Positions 22,153-48,753 of a stretch of 64,000 nt of DNA are shown here, one piece after another. The DNA comes from Deltaproteobacteria bacterium (GTDB lineage Bacteria > Desulfobacterota > Desulfuromonadia > Geobacterales > JAJYBI01), in NCBI GenBank assembly GCA_021779095.1, contig JAJYBI010000004.1, positions 47,784 to 111,783 of the forward strand, given 5' to 3'. The notes below the pieces were generated by a model that saw nothing but the letters and a program-made list of their open reading frames with translations, was not told the DNA's origin and made no database searches. Positions within the stretch are counted from its first letter, which is position 1. Each line of letters opens with the position of its first letter. The position numbers were made by a program, and so were the translations under genes.

Positions 22153-23348
22153 GATCCCTCCGTCAGACGCAGTTCCACACCCCATGGTACCGGTCTCTCG
22201 CCGTCGCCGGTGAGGACCCAGAGGGTGGGGAATTCCATGGTTGCCGGCGCCTCGCCCCTGCCGTCGGTGAGATATATCACCGCCGCCGGTGAAGGCTGCA
22301 TGGTGCGGGCAAAGTCGAAGACCGGCCGCAGGTCGGTGAACCCGCCGCCGTGGTAGCTCTCGATAGTGGCGGTGATGCCGGTGAAGGAGTCGATCCGCTG
22401 GATCCGGCTGTTGGCGTACAGCACGGTGATGCGGGCCTCGCGCCCGCGGGAGATCTGCATCAGCTCCCGGGCGAACGCCTCCCTCAGCGGAACGCTGTCG
22501 GTGGATTCGCTCACGTCGATCCCCACCAGGAGGTTCAGGAGCTGGCGCTTCCGGATGCCGGGGGTCCCCTGGCCGAACCGCCGGTGGCTGCGGCTCCAGG
22601 TGGTGCGGCGGCCGGTGCGGCCGGCACTGCCGATGAACTGGCGCAGGATCTGTCGCCACGGCAGGGCAGGGGGGGCGAGGAGCCCGTCGACAACCGTCCG
22701 CAGCTCGCCCGGCAGGTCGCCGGCGCTCATCCGGAGGGCGTCCCGGGCCAGCGACCGCACCATCTCCTCGGCGAACTTTAAGGGCGTGCCGTCCGCATCC
22801 TGCCAGACGAGATGGTCGTCGGCCACGGCGGCCTGTTCCCGCTGCAGTTCCGGGGAGGTCCCCCGGTCGGCGTGGTGGCCTGCGTCCCGCACCCCGTCCC
22901 CCAGGCCGTACCCCTCCAGGTTACCCGTGTCGGGGCGGGCGGCCAAAAGGTCGTAGTACTCCTCGGCGGCCAGTCCCGGCGGCAGCTTGTACCGTTCCGG
23001 CCGGGGCGCCTCCCCGTCCATCCCCGGGATGGACGGATTGATGGCGACGTCGCAGCTCGCATCCCAGAGCCAGCCGTTTCTCCCCTTGCGGCGGGCCATG
23101 TGCAGGCGCAGGAGGTGGTGGATGCAGTGCTCCAGGAGCGCCTCCTGGTGCCGATGGTCCAGTGCGGCGAAGAGCTCTTCGTTCAGGCAGAGGGTGGGGA
23201 CGCCGCCCCGGATGGTGATCCCCAGCGGGTGGCCGGTGGAGAGTGTAGCCCGGCGGAGGTTGACGAGAAGGTTGCCGTAGAACGGCCGGTCCCGCAGAAG
23301 CCGGATGACGGCGTCCTCCAGGCTGCGGCGCATCTCAGGCGATTTCAC
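22146..23348 (-). CDS. VWA-domain protein with N-terminal putative-metallopeptidase-like domain (DUF2201/COG3864-like)
   Basis: The N-terminus LLRDRPFYGNLLVNL...LEHCIHHLLRLH is followed by a VWA fold with MIDAS GIDVSEST. The start is either GTG 23348 (14-nt overlap with the AAA gene) or ATG 23333. Confidence 0.75.
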   Translation of the reverse strand: MKSPEMRRSLEDAVIRLLRDRPFYGNLLVNLRRATLSTGHPLGITIRGGVPTLCLNEELFAALDHRHQEALLEHCIHHLLRLHMARRKGRNGWLWDASCDVAINPSIPGMDGEAPRPERYKLPPGLAAEEYYDLLAARPDTGNLEGYGLGDGVRDAGHHADRGTSPELQREQAAVADDHLVWQDADGTPLKFAEEMVRSLARDALRMSAGDLPGELRTVVDGLLAPPALPWRQILRQFIGSAGRTGRRTTWSRSHRRFGQGTPGIRKRQLLNLLVGIDVSESTDSVPLREAFARELMQISRGREARITVLYANSRIQRIDSFTGITATIESYHGGGFTDLRPVFDFARTMQPSPAAVIYLTDGRGEAPATMEFPTLWVLTGDGERPVPWGVELRLTEGSW

Positions 23349-24396
23349 GGGAGATCTGGCGGATGGCGTCGAAGACCACCCCGTCGTAGCAGTCCTTGGA
23401 GATGGCGCCGGCGACGGCGGGGAGCCGCAGGAGCGACTTCACCATGGCGAAGCGCATATCTCGCGGCAGAATGGCGAGGTAGGCCACCAGGTGCTCCTCG
23501 TGGGGAAGGGGAAGGTCGCGGGCGGCGGCGAGGGCGTTCACCAGCTCGTTCATGGTCATCGCCTGCAGGTCGTCGCGCTGGGCGGCGCAGCGTGCCTGTA
23601 CCTCGTCCCATCGCTCCAGCACCTCGTCGGCGGTAACCGGTCGAATCCGGTTCTCGGCGCACCAGTGCAGGAACATGACCGCCGCCTCGCGCCCGACGAT
23701 CCCTGCGTACACCTCCATCTCCAGGCCGTCGGGGAACCGGCAGCTGCGGCGCAGCAGGCTCACCATCTCCCAGCCCCGCTCCGTCGGTTCCACCGGCATC
23801 TCCAGCGGTGCCCCCCGGGCGGCGAGCATCCCGGAGTTCGCGACGAGAAACCGGCGCACACTGTCGTCCAGGCCGCGGCTCCTGGCGTACCGGTCCCAGC
23901 AGGCGTGGTCGCTTTCCACGTACAGCATGACCATCCGGTCGATGAGGGCACGGTCGAGGCTGGCCACCTGGTAGGTGCCGTCGGGGGGATTGATGGTGAC
24001 GATCACCCGGTGCCGGGGGGCGAGGGTGTGGGTGTGCAGGGCGCGGGGCTGGCCTTCGGCGGGAGGCTCCACGAACTGGAAGATCGCCTGGAGGGTGTCC
24101 TCCTGCTGGGCGCGGTTCAGCTCGTCGCAGTGGACGACGACTCCCTCTTCATCGGCGGCGGGCCACCAGGACGGCCGGGACCAGTGCATGGTCTCGCCGT
24201 CACGGTACGGGATTCCCACCAGGTCCCCCACCTCCATCTGGCCGAGCCGCAACGGGATGTACCGCTTCCCCAGGTCACGGCAGAGCTGGATGATGCCGGC
24301 AGTCTTTCCCACCCCCCGGTGTCCCACCACGCAGGGGGTGAGGTCGGTCCTGGTGATGATCTCCGCCAGCACCCGTTTCATCTGTTCCACGTTCAT
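23335..24396 (-). CDS. AAA_5 (MoxR/dynein-related) ATPase
   Basis: Walker A is VVGHRGVGKTAG and Walker B is VVVHCDELNRA. GGAAGAGG RBS. It starts 12 nt downstream of the rubrerythrin-like gene. Confidence 0.8.
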   Translation of the reverse strand: MNVEQMKRVLAEIITRTDLTPCVVGHRGVGKTAGIIQLCRDLGKRYIPLRLGQMEVGDLVGIPYRDGETMHWSRPSWWPAADEEGVVVHCDELNRAQQEDTLQAIFQFVEPPAEGQPRALHTHTLAPRHRVIVTINPPDGTYQVASLDRALIDRMVMLYVESDHACWDRYARSRGLDDSVRRFLVANSGMLAARGAPLEMPVEPTERGWEMVSLLRRSCRFPDGLEMEVYAGIVGREAAVMFLHWCAENRIRPVTADEVLERWDEVQARCAAQRDDLQAMTMNELVNALAAARDLPLPHEEHLVAYLAILPRDMRFAMVKSLLRLPAVAGAISKDCYDGVVFDAIRQISREIA

Positions 24397-24408
24397 GGCG
24401 ACCTCTTC

Positions 24409-24864
24409 CTACATCTCCCGCAGCACCTGTTCGTCGTAGATGGCCTCGATGCGCAGCTTGTGCCCCTTCTCCACGTCGGCGAACAGCTGCAGGGTCTTTT
24501 TCAGCCGGGGCTCGTCCGTCGCCTCGGCGGCAGCCAGGTACAGCTGGTAGGCATGCTCTTCCGCCTTCATGGCGAACATGAGGATCTCCTGATAGGTCAT
24601 GTCTGGGCGGAACGGGATGTCAGTCATGTACTCGGCGATCTTCATATCGGGTATCGCGCGGAAACGGTGCTGTTCGCTCTTCGCCAGGTCGATCCTGCTG
24701 AAGACCTCCTTGTGGCCGGCCTCTTCGGCGGCCAGCTCCTCGAACATCTTGCGGGCGGCGATGCTGGTGGTCTTCTCCGCCGCGCTCTTGTACAGCCGGT
24801 AGGCGGTATCCTCGCGCTGTACGGCGAAGTCGATGATCTCTTCCAGTGTCCTGTGGTCCTTCAT
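24409..24864 (-). CDS. rubrerythrin/erythrin-like diiron four-helix-bundle protein (no fused rubredoxin domain)
   Basis: Two E...ExxH pairs are present (EDTAYRLY..EEAGH and EEHAYQLY..EKGH). ATG at 24864 follows AGGAGGAG. Confidence 0.8.
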   Translation of the reverse strand: MKDHRTLEEIIDFAVQREDTAYRLYKSAAEKTTSIAARKMFEELAAEEAGHKEVFSRIDLAKSEQHRFRAIPDMKIAEYMTDIPFRPDMTYQEILMFAMKAEEHAYQLYLAAAEATDEPRLKKTLQLFADVEKGHKLRIEAIYDEQVLREM

Positions 24865-24924
24865 GTCTCCTCCTGTCAATGGATATCATCCTCCACGTCC
24901 GGGCGTGGAGCGGATGCGGTACGA

Positions 24925-25032
24925 TTACACCTCGCTGAAGTTGATGCGTGTCTCGCCGCACAGCGGACAGACCATAGGTGGTTCGTCACCTTCGTGCTGA
25001 TAGCAGCAGAGCTTGCATTTCCATTTCTTCAT
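24925..25032 (-). CDS. 35-aa rubredoxin-type zinc/iron-ribbon protein (below the ORF-track size cutoff)
   Basis: Hand translation gives MKKWKCKLCCYQHEGDEPPMVCPLCGETRINFSEV*. Two CxxC knuckles (CKLC, CPLC) are spaced as in a rubredoxin or rubrerythrin C-terminal domain. It sits between the Fur-family gene and the erythrin-like gene. Confidence 0.65.
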   Translation of the reverse strand: MKKWKCKLCCYQHEGDEPPMVCPLCGETRINFSEV

Positions 25033-25062
25033 ATCCGGGCTCCTTGGTAAGGATGGATGCGG

Positions 25063-25530
25063 TCAGACGCCCCGTCGGTTATCGACCTTTCCGGCGCAGC
25101 GGGGGCAGCGGCCGGTGAAACTGATGGTGTAGTCGTGAATCTGGAATCCGTTGTCCACCGGTGTGGGGAGCGGTAAACGGTCGAGGGAGGGGTCATGCAG
25201 ATCTACCATCACGTCGCAGCCGGTGCATCGCAGGTGATGGTGCCGGGCGGTATCCGCGTCGAACCGGGCCCGCGCCAGCGGGCTGTTGATCTTCTGGACG
25301 ATGCCGTACTGCACGAAGGTTTCCAGGACACGGTAGACCGTGGTGCGGGAAACGCCGGGGATACGTGCCTGGACCGTTTCGAATACCTGGTCGGCGGTGG
25401 GGTGGTCCTTCCGTACGGCGAGCGATTCCATGATGGCCCGCCGTTGGACCGTCATCGGCAGCCCCTTGCTGCGGCAGACCTGCTCCAGTTCGTGCATCTT
25501 GCTGATGTGAAAGTCCGGATGCAATGACAT
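25063..25530 (-). CDS. Fur-family transcriptional regulator (PerR-like by context)
   Basis: Contains MTVQRRAIMESL..HPTADQVF..VSRTTVYRVL, then HHHLRCTGC and a C-terminal CPRC pair. It is the first gene of the peroxide-type operon. Confidence 0.85.
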   Translation of the reverse strand: MSLHPDFHISKMHELEQVCRSKGLPMTVQRRAIMESLAVRKDHPTADQVFETVQARIPGVSRTTVYRVLETFVQYGIVQKINSPLARARFDADTARHHHLRCTGCDVMVDLHDPSLDRLPLPTPVDNGFQIHDYTISFTGRCPRCAGKVDNRRGV

Positions 25531-25533
25531 GTT

Positions 25534-25569
25534 GTTTGGTAAAATATTGCAAACGCATTAGTGTGTCAA
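25534..25569 (-). promoter_or_regulatory. candidate sigma-70 promoter of the Fur/PerR operon with overlapping AT-rich imperfect palindrome (Fur/PerR-box-like)
   Basis: On the minus strand: TTGACA (25564-25569), a 17-nt spacer, then TATTTT (25541-25546). The imperfect palindrome GTTTGCAATATTTTACCAAAC (25534-25554) covers the -10. Confidence 0.5.
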
Positions 25570-25611
25570 GCGGTTTGCTGCAGGTGGGGAGGGAAGGCGG
25601 TGAGGTGGGGA

Positions 25612-25637
25612 TAAAAAAGGGGCGCCCGGAGGCGCCG
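25612..25637 (-). terminator. intrinsic terminator of the small membrane-protein gene
   Basis: On the minus strand: GGCGCC-UCCG-GGCGCC followed by CCUUUUUUAU. Confidence 0.75.
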
Positions 25638-25727
25638 CATCACAAGAAGGAGAGTACTGCGTTGTGCGGGTGTTGCACTGGTGCGAACCGGCCGGGCCGG
25701 ACGTGTGGTGTCCGCGGCCGGGTGAGC

Positions 25728-25892
25728 TCAGTTCCGTCCTCTGGAGGAGATGAGCGTGGAATCTCTGCCCGGCGTGCGAGGTGCATCGACAGGAACTGCC
25801 GCTTTCTGCGGATGATTTCCTGTCAGGCGCCAGGCGATGGCCCACAGGGTGAAGCCGATAACTACCGTGATAAGGTCTTTCAGCAGGTCCAT
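25728..25892 (-). CDS. 54-aa single-pass membrane protein (hypothetical)
   Basis: ATG at 25892 lies 6 nt after a perfect AAGGAGG. Sequence is MDLLKDLITVVIGFTLWAIAWRLTG... with one hydrophobic helix. It has its own terminator downstream. Confidence 0.6.
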   Translation of the reverse strand: MDLLKDLITVVIGFTLWAIAWRLTGNHPQKAAVPVDAPRTPGRDSTLISSRGRN

Positions 25893-25920
25893 GGGAATCC
25901 TCCTTCCGTTTTCGCGCAGA

Positions 25921-25970
25921 AAACAAAAAAGCCGGATTGCCGAAATCTGATGACATTTCGGCAACCCGGC
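25921..25970 (-). terminator. strong intrinsic terminator located inside the 5' leader of the 54-aa gene (attenuator/expression platform)
   Basis: On the minus strand: GCCGGGUUGCCGAAAU-GUCAUCAG-AUUUCGGCAAUCCGGC (16-bp stem, one G-U pair) followed by UUUUUUGUUUU. It ends 15 nt before the RBS. Confidence 0.8.
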
Positions 25971-26051
25971 TGTCTGCGTGAGACCCTGTAGGCTTTCCGC
26001 CCCATCCTCGCGGATGGTTTAGTATTATCGTGTATCATTTCTGTTTGGAAA

Positions 26052-26080
26052 CATATACCTCATTAAATCCGGTGTCGCAA
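26052..26080 (-). promoter_or_regulatory. candidate sigma-70 promoter driving the structured leader
   Basis: On the minus strand: TTGCGA (26075-26080), a 17-nt spacer, then TATATG (26052-26057). Confidence 0.5.
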
Positions 26081-45538: not shown

Positions 45539-46183
45539 GTGAACGTTATCGTCGTCGAAGATACCGCGACTGTAAGGGCCATGCTTGTGGATCTGTTGAA
45601 GGCCAACGGCAGGCATAGCGTGGTTGCAGCCGTGGATCGGGTTGAAGATGCGCTGACGTACCTGGCAGGCGATAGTGCGGATCTGATGATCCTTGACCTT
45701 TGTCTTCCCGGACTTTCGTACGAAGCGGCTGTCAGGGCCGTTAATAATGCCAGCCCTGACCTGGAAATTCTGGTTTTTACGGTTTCGGAAGAGGAAGAAA
45801 CGGTTTTTTCGGCGCTGAAAGCCGGTGCTACCGGGTATCTGCTGAAGACGGCCCGGTCCGCCCAGATTATCGCCGCCCTCGACGAAATCGAGGCCGGTGG
45901 CTCGCCCATGTCCCCCTCCATCGCCAGGAAGGTGCTCCGTGAATTCCAGGGGGTGCCGGTCCATGAAGAGCTGCAGGGGATGATCTCTCCCCTTTCGGAC
46001 AGGGAGACGGAGATACTGGAATTGCTGTACCGTGGGCTTATCATCCAGCAAATTGCCGACAGGCTGTTCATCAGCCCCCTCACCGTTCATACCCATATCA
46101 AGAATATCTATGCGAAACTGCAGGTCAACTCGCGCTCCCAGGCCATATACGAGGCCGTACAGAAAAAATTGATCAAGGGATAG
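45539..46183 (+). CDS. NarL/FixJ-type response regulator (REC + LuxR-type HTH)
   Basis: Receiver acidic pocket VVEDT...[11 protein letters not shown] and a C-terminal [13 protein letters not shown]....IA..L.IS..TV..H..NIY.KL motif. GTG start follows GGAGG. There is no adjacent kinase. Confidence 0.9.
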
Positions 46184-46291: not shown

Positions 46292-46384
46292 CTCTCCGAT
46301 ACGAGCAAAACCAGGGTGACCTGGTGACGCAAAATCACGGATCCGCAATGGAAAGCGCGGATGGCCGGATCGCCGAAGAGAGAG
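46292..46384 (+). promoter_or_regulatory. GEMM-I (c-di-GMP-I class) riboswitch aptamer, copy 1
   Basis: CUCUCCGAUACGAGCAAAACC-AGG-GUGA-CCU-GGUGACGCAAAAUCAC...GGCCGGAUCGCCGAAGAGAGAG. The GCAAA, GNRA-capped P1b, ACGCAAA and closing CCGAAGAG elements occur in GEMM-I order. Confidence 0.75.
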
Positions 46385-46530: not shown

Positions 46531-46625
46531 CTCCGATAAAGGCAAAACCGGAGTAATCCGGCGACGCAAAGCCACGGGTCCATAACTTCACTAGATAGGG
46601 TGTGGATAGCCGGGTTACCGAAGAG
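46531..46625 (+). promoter_or_regulatory. GEMM-I (c-di-GMP-I class) riboswitch aptamer, copy 2
   Basis: CUCCGAUAAAGGCAAAACCGGA-GUAA-UCCGGCGACGCAAAGCCACGGGUCC...GGGUGUGGAUAGCCGGGUUACCGAAGAG. It closely matches the V. cholerae Vc2 core as I remember it (GGCAAACC..GAAA..GGGACGCAAAGCC...GUAGCGGGGUUACCGAUGG). Confidence 0.85.
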
Positions 46626-46852: not shown

Positions 46853-47299
46853 ATGAAAAAAGTAGTGGCAATCTCGGTAGCAGCAGCAATCGTCGCCATG
46901 GGTGGCACGGCAATGGCCGTTACCGCCGATCTCAGTGTCTCCGCAACTGTCGCCAGTGCCTGTTCCGTTACCGGTGGTACCCTCAGTTTCGGCGCATTGG
47001 ATACGTTGAACGCGCCCGCTGTGCCCGCAACATCATCCGGGGTAACCGTTACCTGCACGAAATCAGATCCGTACACGGTACAGGTCAACAACGGGCTCAA
47101 CGCTGTCAGCAACCAGGCGTATCTGAAAAACGCAACCAATACGGACACCATCCCGTATTCTTTGACGGTCCCTGCGTTATCAGCCGGCACCGGCAACGCG
47201 CAGACTATCGACATCGCGGGCAACATCGCCGCCGGGTCGTATAAGACCGCATCGGCCGGCACGTACAACGATACCGTGGTTATCACCGTCACCCCGTAG
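46853..47299 (+). CDS. spore coat protein U (SCPU)/Csu-type pilin subunit 1 (likely major subunit)
   Basis: Signal peptide. Cys pair SACSV...VTCTK. Contains FG.LD, IPYSL and the C-terminal AGTYNDTVVITVTP. AAGGAGGG RBS. Confidence 0.85.
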   Translation: MKKVVAISVAAAIVAMGGTAMAVTADLSVSATVASACSVTGGTLSFGALDTLNAPAVPATSSGVTVTCTKSDPYTVQVNNGLNAVSNQAYLKNATNTDTIPYSLTVPALSAGTGNAQTIDIAGNIAAGSYKTASAGTYNDTVVITVTP

Positions 47300-47383: not shown

Positions 47384-47845
47384 GTGATGGTTCTCGTGCG
47401 CACATTCATATGCATTGCCTTCATCCTCGTGACAACCGGTATGGGGCATGCCGCATCAACCACGGGGAATCTGGCCGTCTCGGCGTACATCACGGGGGTC
47501 GGCTATTGTGCCGTCAACCATACCCAGGATATTGCATTCGGTGTCCTTGATCCACTTAACCCTGCGAACGTTCAGTCATCAGGCAGTGTCAGCGTCGTGT
47601 GCCTCGGATTCGGCAGCGGTTTTACCGTCGGCGTGACCCAGGTGACGCCTTCCCCCCTCAGCCTGAAGAGCGGCGCCAACGAGATCCCCTATCAACTCGA
47701 ACTCCCCACCAGCGCCACCCGTACGTCGGGAGGTGTCATTGCCAGGCTTACCATCCCGATCACGGCAGACATCCGGGGGGCTGACTACAAACAGGCACCG
47801 GCCGGCTCATACACGGACAGGGTGACCCTTCAGATAACGCCGTAA
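47384..47845 (+). CDS. SCPU/Csu-type pilin subunit 2
   Basis: Signal peptide. Cys pair YCAV...VVCLG. Contains IPYQLEL and the C-terminal AGSYTDRVTLQITP. Confidence 0.8.
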   Translation: MMVLVRTFICIAFILVTTGMGHAASTTGNLAVSAYITGVGYCAVNHTQDIAFGVLDPLNPANVQSSGSVSVVCLGFGSGFTVGVTQVTPSPLSLKSGANEIPYQLELPTSATRTSGGVIARLTIPITADIRGADYKQAPAGSYTDRVTLQITP

Positions 47846-47958: not shown

Positions 47959-48753
47959 ATGACAGAAACGCTTTCCCATCGGCTTTTCAAAACGGCGATA
48001 TCCGTTCAGGCACTTTTTTGCGTGGTCTTCATTCTTCTGGTCATGTCTCCCGTCGACGGCTATTCAGGGCAATGGCGGGTCGCCCCTGCCCGTATCTATC
48101 TGGACCGTGATCTGAAGAGCAGCGTCATTACCGTGGTAAACGACGGGGACGAGAAGATCGATCTGCAGGGGAAGGCCATGGCGTGGAGCCAGGATGAACA
48201 GGGTAAGGATATCTACCGGGAATCGAATGATCTCGTATTTTTTCCCCGGATACTGATGATCGGAAAAGGCGGACAGAGGATCATCCGTATCGGGATAAAG
48301 AACCCGGAGGCTGCGCAGGAGAAGACCTACCGACTGTTCATCGAAGAGATTCCCCCCCCGCGAAAAAATCCGCTCGACTCTGCCCAACTGACGGTTGCCG
48401 TCAGGTTCGGAATTCCCGTTTTCGTCAAGCCGCTCAAGGAGGAGGTAAAGGGGGAGATCGCCCATGCCGAGCTTAAGAAGGGCCGTATCTCCATGACCGT
48501 CAGGAATACGGGCAATACCCATTTCAGGATCACCGACATCACCATGAAAGGCCGCGACGGCACGGGAGCGGAGACGTTTGCCACGAAGCTCAACGGATGG
48601 TACCTGCTTGCCGATGCCGCCAGGGAGTATGCTGCACCCGTTCCGCAGGATAAGTGTGTTGCGACGTCCCACATTGAGATAACGGTGTCGACTGATGAGA
48701 ATATTACGCTTACCGGGAACGTGAATGTGGAAAAGACGCTGTGCCTGCCGTAA
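47959..48753 (+). CDS. periplasmic pilus chaperone (PapD-fold, CsuC-like)
   Basis: Signal peptide followed by the typical chaperone pattern V.P.RIYLD......SVITV.N.G.E...LQ. A second Ig-like domain follows. Confidence 0.8.
   Translation: MTETLSHRLFKTAISVQALFCVVFILLVMSPVDGYSGQWRVAPARIYLDRDLKSSVITVVNDGDEKIDLQGKAMAWSQDEQGKDIYRESNDLVFFPRILMIGKGGQRIIRIGIKNPEAAQEKTYRLFIEEIPPPRKNPLDSAQLTVAVRFGIPVFVKPLKEEVKGEIAHAELKKGRISMTVRNTGNTHFRITDITMKGRDGTGAETFATKLNGWYLLADAAREYAAPVPQDKCVATSHIEITVSTDENITLTGNVNVEKTLCLP

Follow-up and report, generated by a model that had tools for sequence, protein, structure and literature searches.

A putative cGAMP-sensing GEMM-Ib riboswitch ahead of an orphan small ORF in an uncultured Geobacteraceae lineage

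On the minus strand of the 64,000-nucleotide stretch of DNA analysed here (hereafter, the window), a promoter, a structured leader, an intrinsic terminator, a Shine-Dalgarno sequence and a 54-codon ORF follow one another in series, which raises the question of what kind of RNA the leader is, what it senses and what it controls. The initial annotation, made from the sequence without database searches, had described this series as a self-contained unit with a candidate riboswitch of unclassified type, had matched the leader to none of the classes considered, c-di-NMP riboswitches included, and had proposed a scan against Rfam. All the elements that it listed were found in the sequence at the places given (Table 1), and two of its counts were off by one base: the stem of the first terminator is 17 bp long rather than 16 bp, and AAGGAGG follows the T-run after 14 nt rather than 15 nt. 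The best explanation of the locus, to which we assign a probability of about 0.9, would be a GEMM-I riboswitch that acts as a transcriptional ON switch and most likely belongs to the GEMM-Ib subclass, which senses 3′,3′-cGAMP.

Table 1 Features of the riboswitch unit and the adjacent operon (positions are those of the window).
Feature	Position	Strand	Basis or remark
Sigma-70-type promoter, TTGCGA-N17-TATATG	26052..26080	-	Read from sequence
Promoter hexamers with 17-nt spacer	TTGCGA 26080-26075; TATATG 26057-26052	-	Read from sequence
GEMM-I (c-di-GMP-I class) aptamer, including extended P1 helix	25950..26038	-	Covariance model and pilM identity
Rfam core of the aptamer	25957-26033	-	RF01051 match
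P2 with GCGA tetraloop	26022-25997	-	Base-pair list
GNRA hairpin CCAUCC-GCGA-GGAUGG	26017-26002	-	Part of P2
P3	25994-25963	-	Base-pair list
Pocket positions	A20 equivalent 26023; A47 equivalent 25996; C92 equivalent 25961	-	Model and pilM alignment
Expression platform: intrinsic terminator, 17-bp stem (25971-25930) and T-run TTTTTGTTTT to 25920	25920..25971	-	Terminator scan
Shine-Dalgarno AAGGAGG	25905-25899	-	14 nt past T-run, 6 nt before ATG at 25892
54-aa ORF, stop TGA at 25730-25728	25728..25892	-	ORF list
Conserved 3′ block CACAACGCAGTACTCTCCTTCTTGTGAT, then second intrinsic terminator (stem 25636-25621 and T-run)	25611..25666	-	Terminator scan and alignment
Second terminator, GGCGCC-TCCG-GGCGCC and T6 run	25636-25611	-	Terminator scan
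Operon: PerR-type Fur-family regulator, 35-aa rubredoxin-like domain protein, rubrerythrin, AAA_5 ATPase	23335-25530	-	

In a scan of the whole window with Rfam 15, the leader matched RF01051 (c-di-GMP-I, GEMM-I; clan CL00126) with 46.7 bits (gathering score 35) along the whole model (positions 1-87; E = 5.5 × 10−6 for the whole 64-kb window and 1.7 × 10−8 for the local region), and is far from a chance match. All three helices of the aptamer can be drawn with standard pairs, P1 closing the three-way junction and P2 being capped by a GNRA loop. Two residues of the ligand pocket are kept, namely the intercalating A47 equivalent and the C92 equivalent, the Watson-Crick partner of a ligand guanine. 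The leader shares the three-helix fold, these two residues and the Rfam family with the canonical GEMM-I riboswitch Vc2, a c-di-GMP-I riboswitch of Vibrio cholerae. The c-di-GMP-I-GGC variant (RF03167) was considered as a candidate class and rejected: the leader scores 50.8 bits, below the gathering score of 59, and has A at the 47 equivalent where the RF03167 consensus has G. Judged by the covariance model, the leader falls within a known class, the GEMM-I cyclic-dinucleotide riboswitches, as an ordinary member. The four orthologous or related aptamer sequences compared differ too little among themselves for covariation to strengthen this assignment.

The suspicion that the leader is a riboswitch was thus borne out by its class membership, and the description of it as unclassified was not: with a match to RF01051 above the gathering score and 90% identity to a published cGAMP riboswitch (see below), the failure to match it to a c-di-NMP class means that an existing class was overlooked, not that a new one had been found. 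Of the motifs singled out in the leader, the GNRA hairpin is present and corresponds to helix P2, GGCGGAAAGCC to the P2/P3 junction and CAGGGUCUCACGCAGACAGCCGGG to P3.

A residue that bears on the ligand lies just 5′ of P2: G is conserved there in RF01051 (G20 in the numbering of Vc2), and the window aptamer has A. In c-di-GMP binders, G20 touches one guanine of the ligand; those Geobacter riboswitches of the GEMM-Ib subclass that bind cGAMP have A instead (A14 in Gs1761; PMC6140456). The window aptamer is identical at 72 of 80 positions (90%; alignment with the pilM sequence from the supplement of PMC9262584) to the pilM riboswitch of Geobacter metallireducens, a GEMM-Ib riboswitch for 3′,3′-cGAMP. 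The two share the A at the G20 equivalent together with its AAUACUAAACC context, the lower P2 pairs C-G and U.G, the GCGA tetraloop, and the C (the C92 equivalent) that aligns with pilM C75, the residue that base-pairs with the ligand (PMC9262584). They differ in the P3 loop, in one P2 pair (U-A versus U.G), in one bulge nucleotide and in two junction nucleotides, and, in the expression platform, in the loop and the 3′ arm of the terminator. Vc2, by contrast, has G20 and the lower P2 pairs G-C and C-G, and discriminates against cGAMP. The same subclass signature is found in the cGAMP riboswitch of GSU1761 (pgcA) of Geobacter sulfurreducens (Gs1761, PDB 4YAZ), with A14 equivalent to A20, a comparison made by its published description only (PMC6140456, PMC6456294). 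Because of the A at the G20 equivalent and the 72/80 identity to pilM, we file the leader as GEMM-I with predicted cGAMP specificity, that is, as a probable member of GEMM-Ib, the 3′,3′-cGAMP-sensing subtype of Geobacteraceae, with cGAMP, rather than c-di-GMP or both, as the most likely ligand.

Sensing of c-di-GMP, or of both dinucleotides equally, would be in keeping with the c-di-GMP-I name of the Rfam family, and some natural A20 GEMM-I riboswitches do bind both cGAMP and c-di-GMP, as do the G20A mutant of Vc2 and several natural GEMM-Ib members (PMC6140456). We nevertheless consider this unlikely, given that the A at the G20 position goes with an identity of 90% to pilM that extends to the lower P2 helix, in which selectivity is affected by point mutations (PMC9262584), and that a selectivity of about 1200-fold for cGAMP is reported for the related pgcA riboswitch (PMC6456294). 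The ligand-binding and switching of pilM were measured; the ligand specificity of the window riboswitch is predicted from sequence. A motif search of the 64-kb window revealed no ORF for a GGDEF or Hypr-GGDEF protein (GacA-like cGAMP synthase).

Three metagenomic contigs, which represent two relatives, carry the riboswitch at the same locus, in the interval between a gene for an S1-domain protein and perR. These positional orthologues are on the contigs of the closest PerR proteins (L164 and L165; PerR 68% identical) and of the closest S1 protein (L169; S1 84% identical), and all three match the window unit in the A of their GEMM-I aptamer, in promoter layout and in terminator design. Conservation of the leader in relatives, the absence of which the initial annotation had held would count against its reading, is therefore observed at L164/L165 and L169. 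Among 80 genome loci anchored on the S1 gene (best S1 identity 68%), there was no instance of the leader or of the ORF, and the S1/riboswitch/perR synteny is absent from these loci, that is, outside a narrow clade. Likewise, the unit was not found among 80 metagenome loci anchored on the Fur-family gene perR, of which only one (L083) shared DNA with it, in the 3′ block alone, and it is also missing from relatives whose PerR is 61% identical. Since the orthologues are confined to L164/L165 and L169 and the riboswitch is absent from the other loci examined, it is conserved, only within a narrow clade.

The promoter was not listed by the consensus promoter scanner because the rule of the scanner demands that the -10 hexamer end in T. 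Its layout (TTGnnn-N17-TATAnn) is kept at the equal position in L164 and L169 in the sequence comparison, and transcription is predicted to start near position 26045. An alternative promoter-like site, TTTCCA-16-GATAAT (26051-26024), was rejected: a transcript from it would start inside the aptamer and lose the 5′ strand of P1.

The terminator reuses the aptamer. In the explicit base-pair list, 10 of the 17 nucleotides of its 5′ arm (25971-25955) belong to the 3′ strands of P3 and P1, and the remainder of the 3′ strand of the extended P1 sits in the terminator loop. Because the 5′ arm takes up these strands, the aptamer and terminator folds exclude each other, and no separate antiterminator is needed. 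By nearest-neighbour energies, the terminator together with P2 amounts to −41.3 kcal/mol, compared to −15.5 kcal/mol for the secondary structure of the aptamer. This design is common to the window unit, L164, L169 and pilM, in which the 5′ arm of the terminator likewise consists of 3′ strands of the aptamer. The pilM riboswitch is a transcriptional ON switch with mutually exclusive aptamer and terminator and very low leakiness in the absence of ligand (PMC9262584); Gs1761, by its published description, is also an ON switch with a terminator and lies upstream of a gene for an extracellular cytochrome. From this anatomy and these precedents, we infer that the window riboswitch is OFF by default and turned ON by the ligand, as is pilM.

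Under this mechanism, the nascent leader would be able to form the three-helix aptamer (P1, P2 with its GNRA loop, and P3) once transcription has begun near the predicted start. When ligand is absent, the 3′ strands of P3 and P1 would be taken by the downstream sequence, forming the 17-bp terminator, and the polymerase would halt at the U-run near 25920; co-transcriptional binding of the ligand would stabilise the aptamer, block the terminator and allow read-through. The read-through RNA, predicted to be ~430 nt long from its start to the end of the second T-run at 25611, would carry a strong Shine-Dalgarno sequence, the 54-codon ORF, which would encode a small hydrophobic protein, and the conserved 3′ block, and would stop at the second terminator, ahead of the perR operon. 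That expression of the small gene depends on read-through had been proposed initially, and we judge the architecture to have been read correctly. In keeping with the ON logic, expression of the GEMM-Ib regulon of G. sulfurreducens drops when the cGAMP synthase GacA is deleted, and cytochromes and several hypothetical genes are among the genes listed for GEMM-Ib in Geobacter (PMC6456294).

The unit is self-contained, as initially described, because the perR operon downstream (perR, the rubredoxin-like gene, the rubrerythrin gene and the AAA gene) is separately transcribed from its own conserved promoter, TTGACA-17-TATTTT (25569-25541). This promoter region, TTGACA ... TTTGCAATATTTTACCA, is kept in relatives.

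What the riboswitch controls is less clear than what it is. The 54-aa ORF contains a single hydrophobic segment (residues 3-21) and matches no family in Pfam or NCBIfam; among 5.8 billion proteins it finds only itself, and an exhaustive HMMER search over 1.84 billion representatives returned the ORF itself and two weak matches. These two marginal matches are repetitive, unrelated proteins and were rejected as homologues. The GC3 value of the ORF is 0.63, compared to 0.81-0.90 in five neighbouring genes, and its codon log-likelihood ratio (−0.215 per codon) is below those of all in-frame 54-codon segments of these neighbours (mean 0.60, minimum 0.14) and above those of all out-of-frame segments (maximum −0.56). 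To judge from these searches and scores, the ORF is a species-restricted orphan whose coding status is uncertain. Thus, of the single-TM protein of 54 aa proposed initially, the ORF and its one hydrophobic segment stand and the protein itself is in doubt. A long ORF on the opposite strand (25524-25991) was also considered as a gene and rejected, all three reverse-strand frames across 25731-25892 being codon-negative.

The comparison with the orthologous loci shows that the sequence behind the riboswitch differs from one relative to the next. At the equal position, L164 has a Shine-Dalgarno sequence, an ATG and a hydrophobic ORF of 47 aa, for which BLASTP shows no similarity to the 54-aa ORF; in both L164 and L169, the terminator is followed by a GGAGG motif. 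Behind the L169 riboswitch lies the gene of a secreted protein with a signal peptide and two CXXCH haem motifs, at least 211 aa long, the ORF being cut by the contig end. Such a cargo is typical of the GEMM-Ib subclass, and L169 in this respect resembles Gs1761. The pilM riboswitch differs, in that it controls a pilus assembly operon whereas the window riboswitch precedes an orphan ORF of 54 codons. In another contig, with an S1 protein identical to that of L169, an ORF of 61 aa was called at the cargo position. The secreted CXXCH protein (L169 1-633, minus strand) also has a weak, sub-threshold match to a 'choice-of-anchor V' domain. Given the 54-aa ORF in the window, the unrelated 47-aa ORF in L164 and the CXXCH protein in L169, the cargo behind the riboswitch is exchanged among close relatives. 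Conservation of the 54-aa ORF, on which the initial annotation had also made its reading depend, was not observed: it has no real homologue and no likeness to its positional counterpart in L164.

The 54-aa ORF would then encode a small membrane protein that is young and evolving fast, or else it would be a frame without function, situated behind a ribosome-binding site that has been retained. The latter is part of a broader reading, in which the riboswitch is real but a stranded remnant of an ancestral arrangement like that of L169, whose secreted, cytochrome-like gene has been lost. We consider this a plausible, if not the favoured, account. It would fit the CXXCH protein behind the L169 riboswitch, the dissimilarity of the window and L164 small ORFs, the restriction of database matches to the ORF itself and two spurious proteins, the position of its GC3 and codon score below every in-frame segment of the five neighbours, and the contrast between flanking non-coding elements that are about 87-90% conserved and an ORF region that cannot be aligned. 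Against it, both the window and L164 combine a strong Shine-Dalgarno sequence with a correct distance to the ATG and a hydrophobic, transmembrane-like segment, the codon score of the window ORF exceeds that of every out-of-frame segment, and an ORF of 61 aa has been called at the cargo position beside the S1 protein of L169. Moreover, the change may be a loss or a gain of the cytochrome gene.

A better conserved part of the read-through region is its 3′ end. The second terminator, also proposed initially, was located by the terminator scan, and the 55 nt at 25666-25612 that include it are about 87-90% identical in three relatives (L083 97-155; L163 ~158-207; L164 ~673-725), whereas the upstream ORF region is not alignable. 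The block with its terminator is thus better conserved than the 54-aa ORF, and the spacer between it and the perR promoter contains indels among relatives. Its CU-rich core, CUCUCCUUCUU, is complementary to a Shine-Dalgarno sequence. The block could be a 3′-end regulatory RNA element or merely the conserved end of an ancestral operon.

If it were the former, the product of read-through might be the RNA itself, the riboswitch gating a ~300-nt transcript whose CU-rich CUCUCCUUCUU block would act as a 3′-end-derived small RNA that pairs with Shine-Dalgarno sequences. Four relatives retain the block and terminator but neither the ORF nor the spacer that leads to the perR promoter; in L083, the block and the perR -35 element are ~28 nt further apart, a difference that speaks against a DNA site acting on perR at a set distance; and UCUCCUUC is, by inspection, complementary to GAAGGAGG. 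However, the block shows no covariation (its consensus fold comprises the terminator and a weak hairpin only) and has no match in Rfam, a CU-rich stretch of any kind pairs with any Shine-Dalgarno sequence, and the block may be conserved simply as what is left of an ancestral operon, its 3′ UTR and terminator. We regard an RNA product as improbable. The fuller proposition, that the output of the locus is a cGAMP-gated regulatory RNA derived from the 3′ end while the upstream cargo, be it an orphan mini-ORF or a cytochrome gene, is freely swapped between close strains, is speculative and, in our estimate, very improbable.

The transcriptional ON riboswitch of the GEMM-I class thus remains the preferred reading, and it has little consequence for riboswitch biology: the class, the GEMM-Ib subclass rule and the ON-switch mechanism are already published, and a routine Rfam scan detects the copy in the window. 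The locus indicates that a GEMM-Ib riboswitch can keep a fixed place on the chromosome as the gene that follows it is swapped among close relatives, and it cautions against reading the function of a riboswitch from whichever ORF comes next. Candidate members of a cGAMP regulon are added for an uncultured Geobacteraceae lineage, among them a tandem pair before a chaperone-usher pilus operon.

This pair consists of two more GEMM-I aptamers on the plus strand of the window (46295-46378 and 46532-46623), between the gene for a LuxR-type response regulator (45539-46183) and the pilus operon, which contains genes for SCPU-domain proteins (46853-47299 and 47384-47845) and a PapD-like chaperone (47959-48753). 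The G20 equivalent is A in the first aptamer and G in the second, so that the pair could constitute a two-input (cGAMP plus c-di-GMP) arrangement. The second aptamer scores above the gathering score of the 'GGC' family RF03167, yet has A where the RF03167 consensus has G. Elsewhere in the window, an ORF on the plus strand that is cut by the window start (2-2617) encodes a large multihaem cytochrome with 16 CXXCH haem-binding motifs, which fits the Geobacteraceae origin of the DNA.
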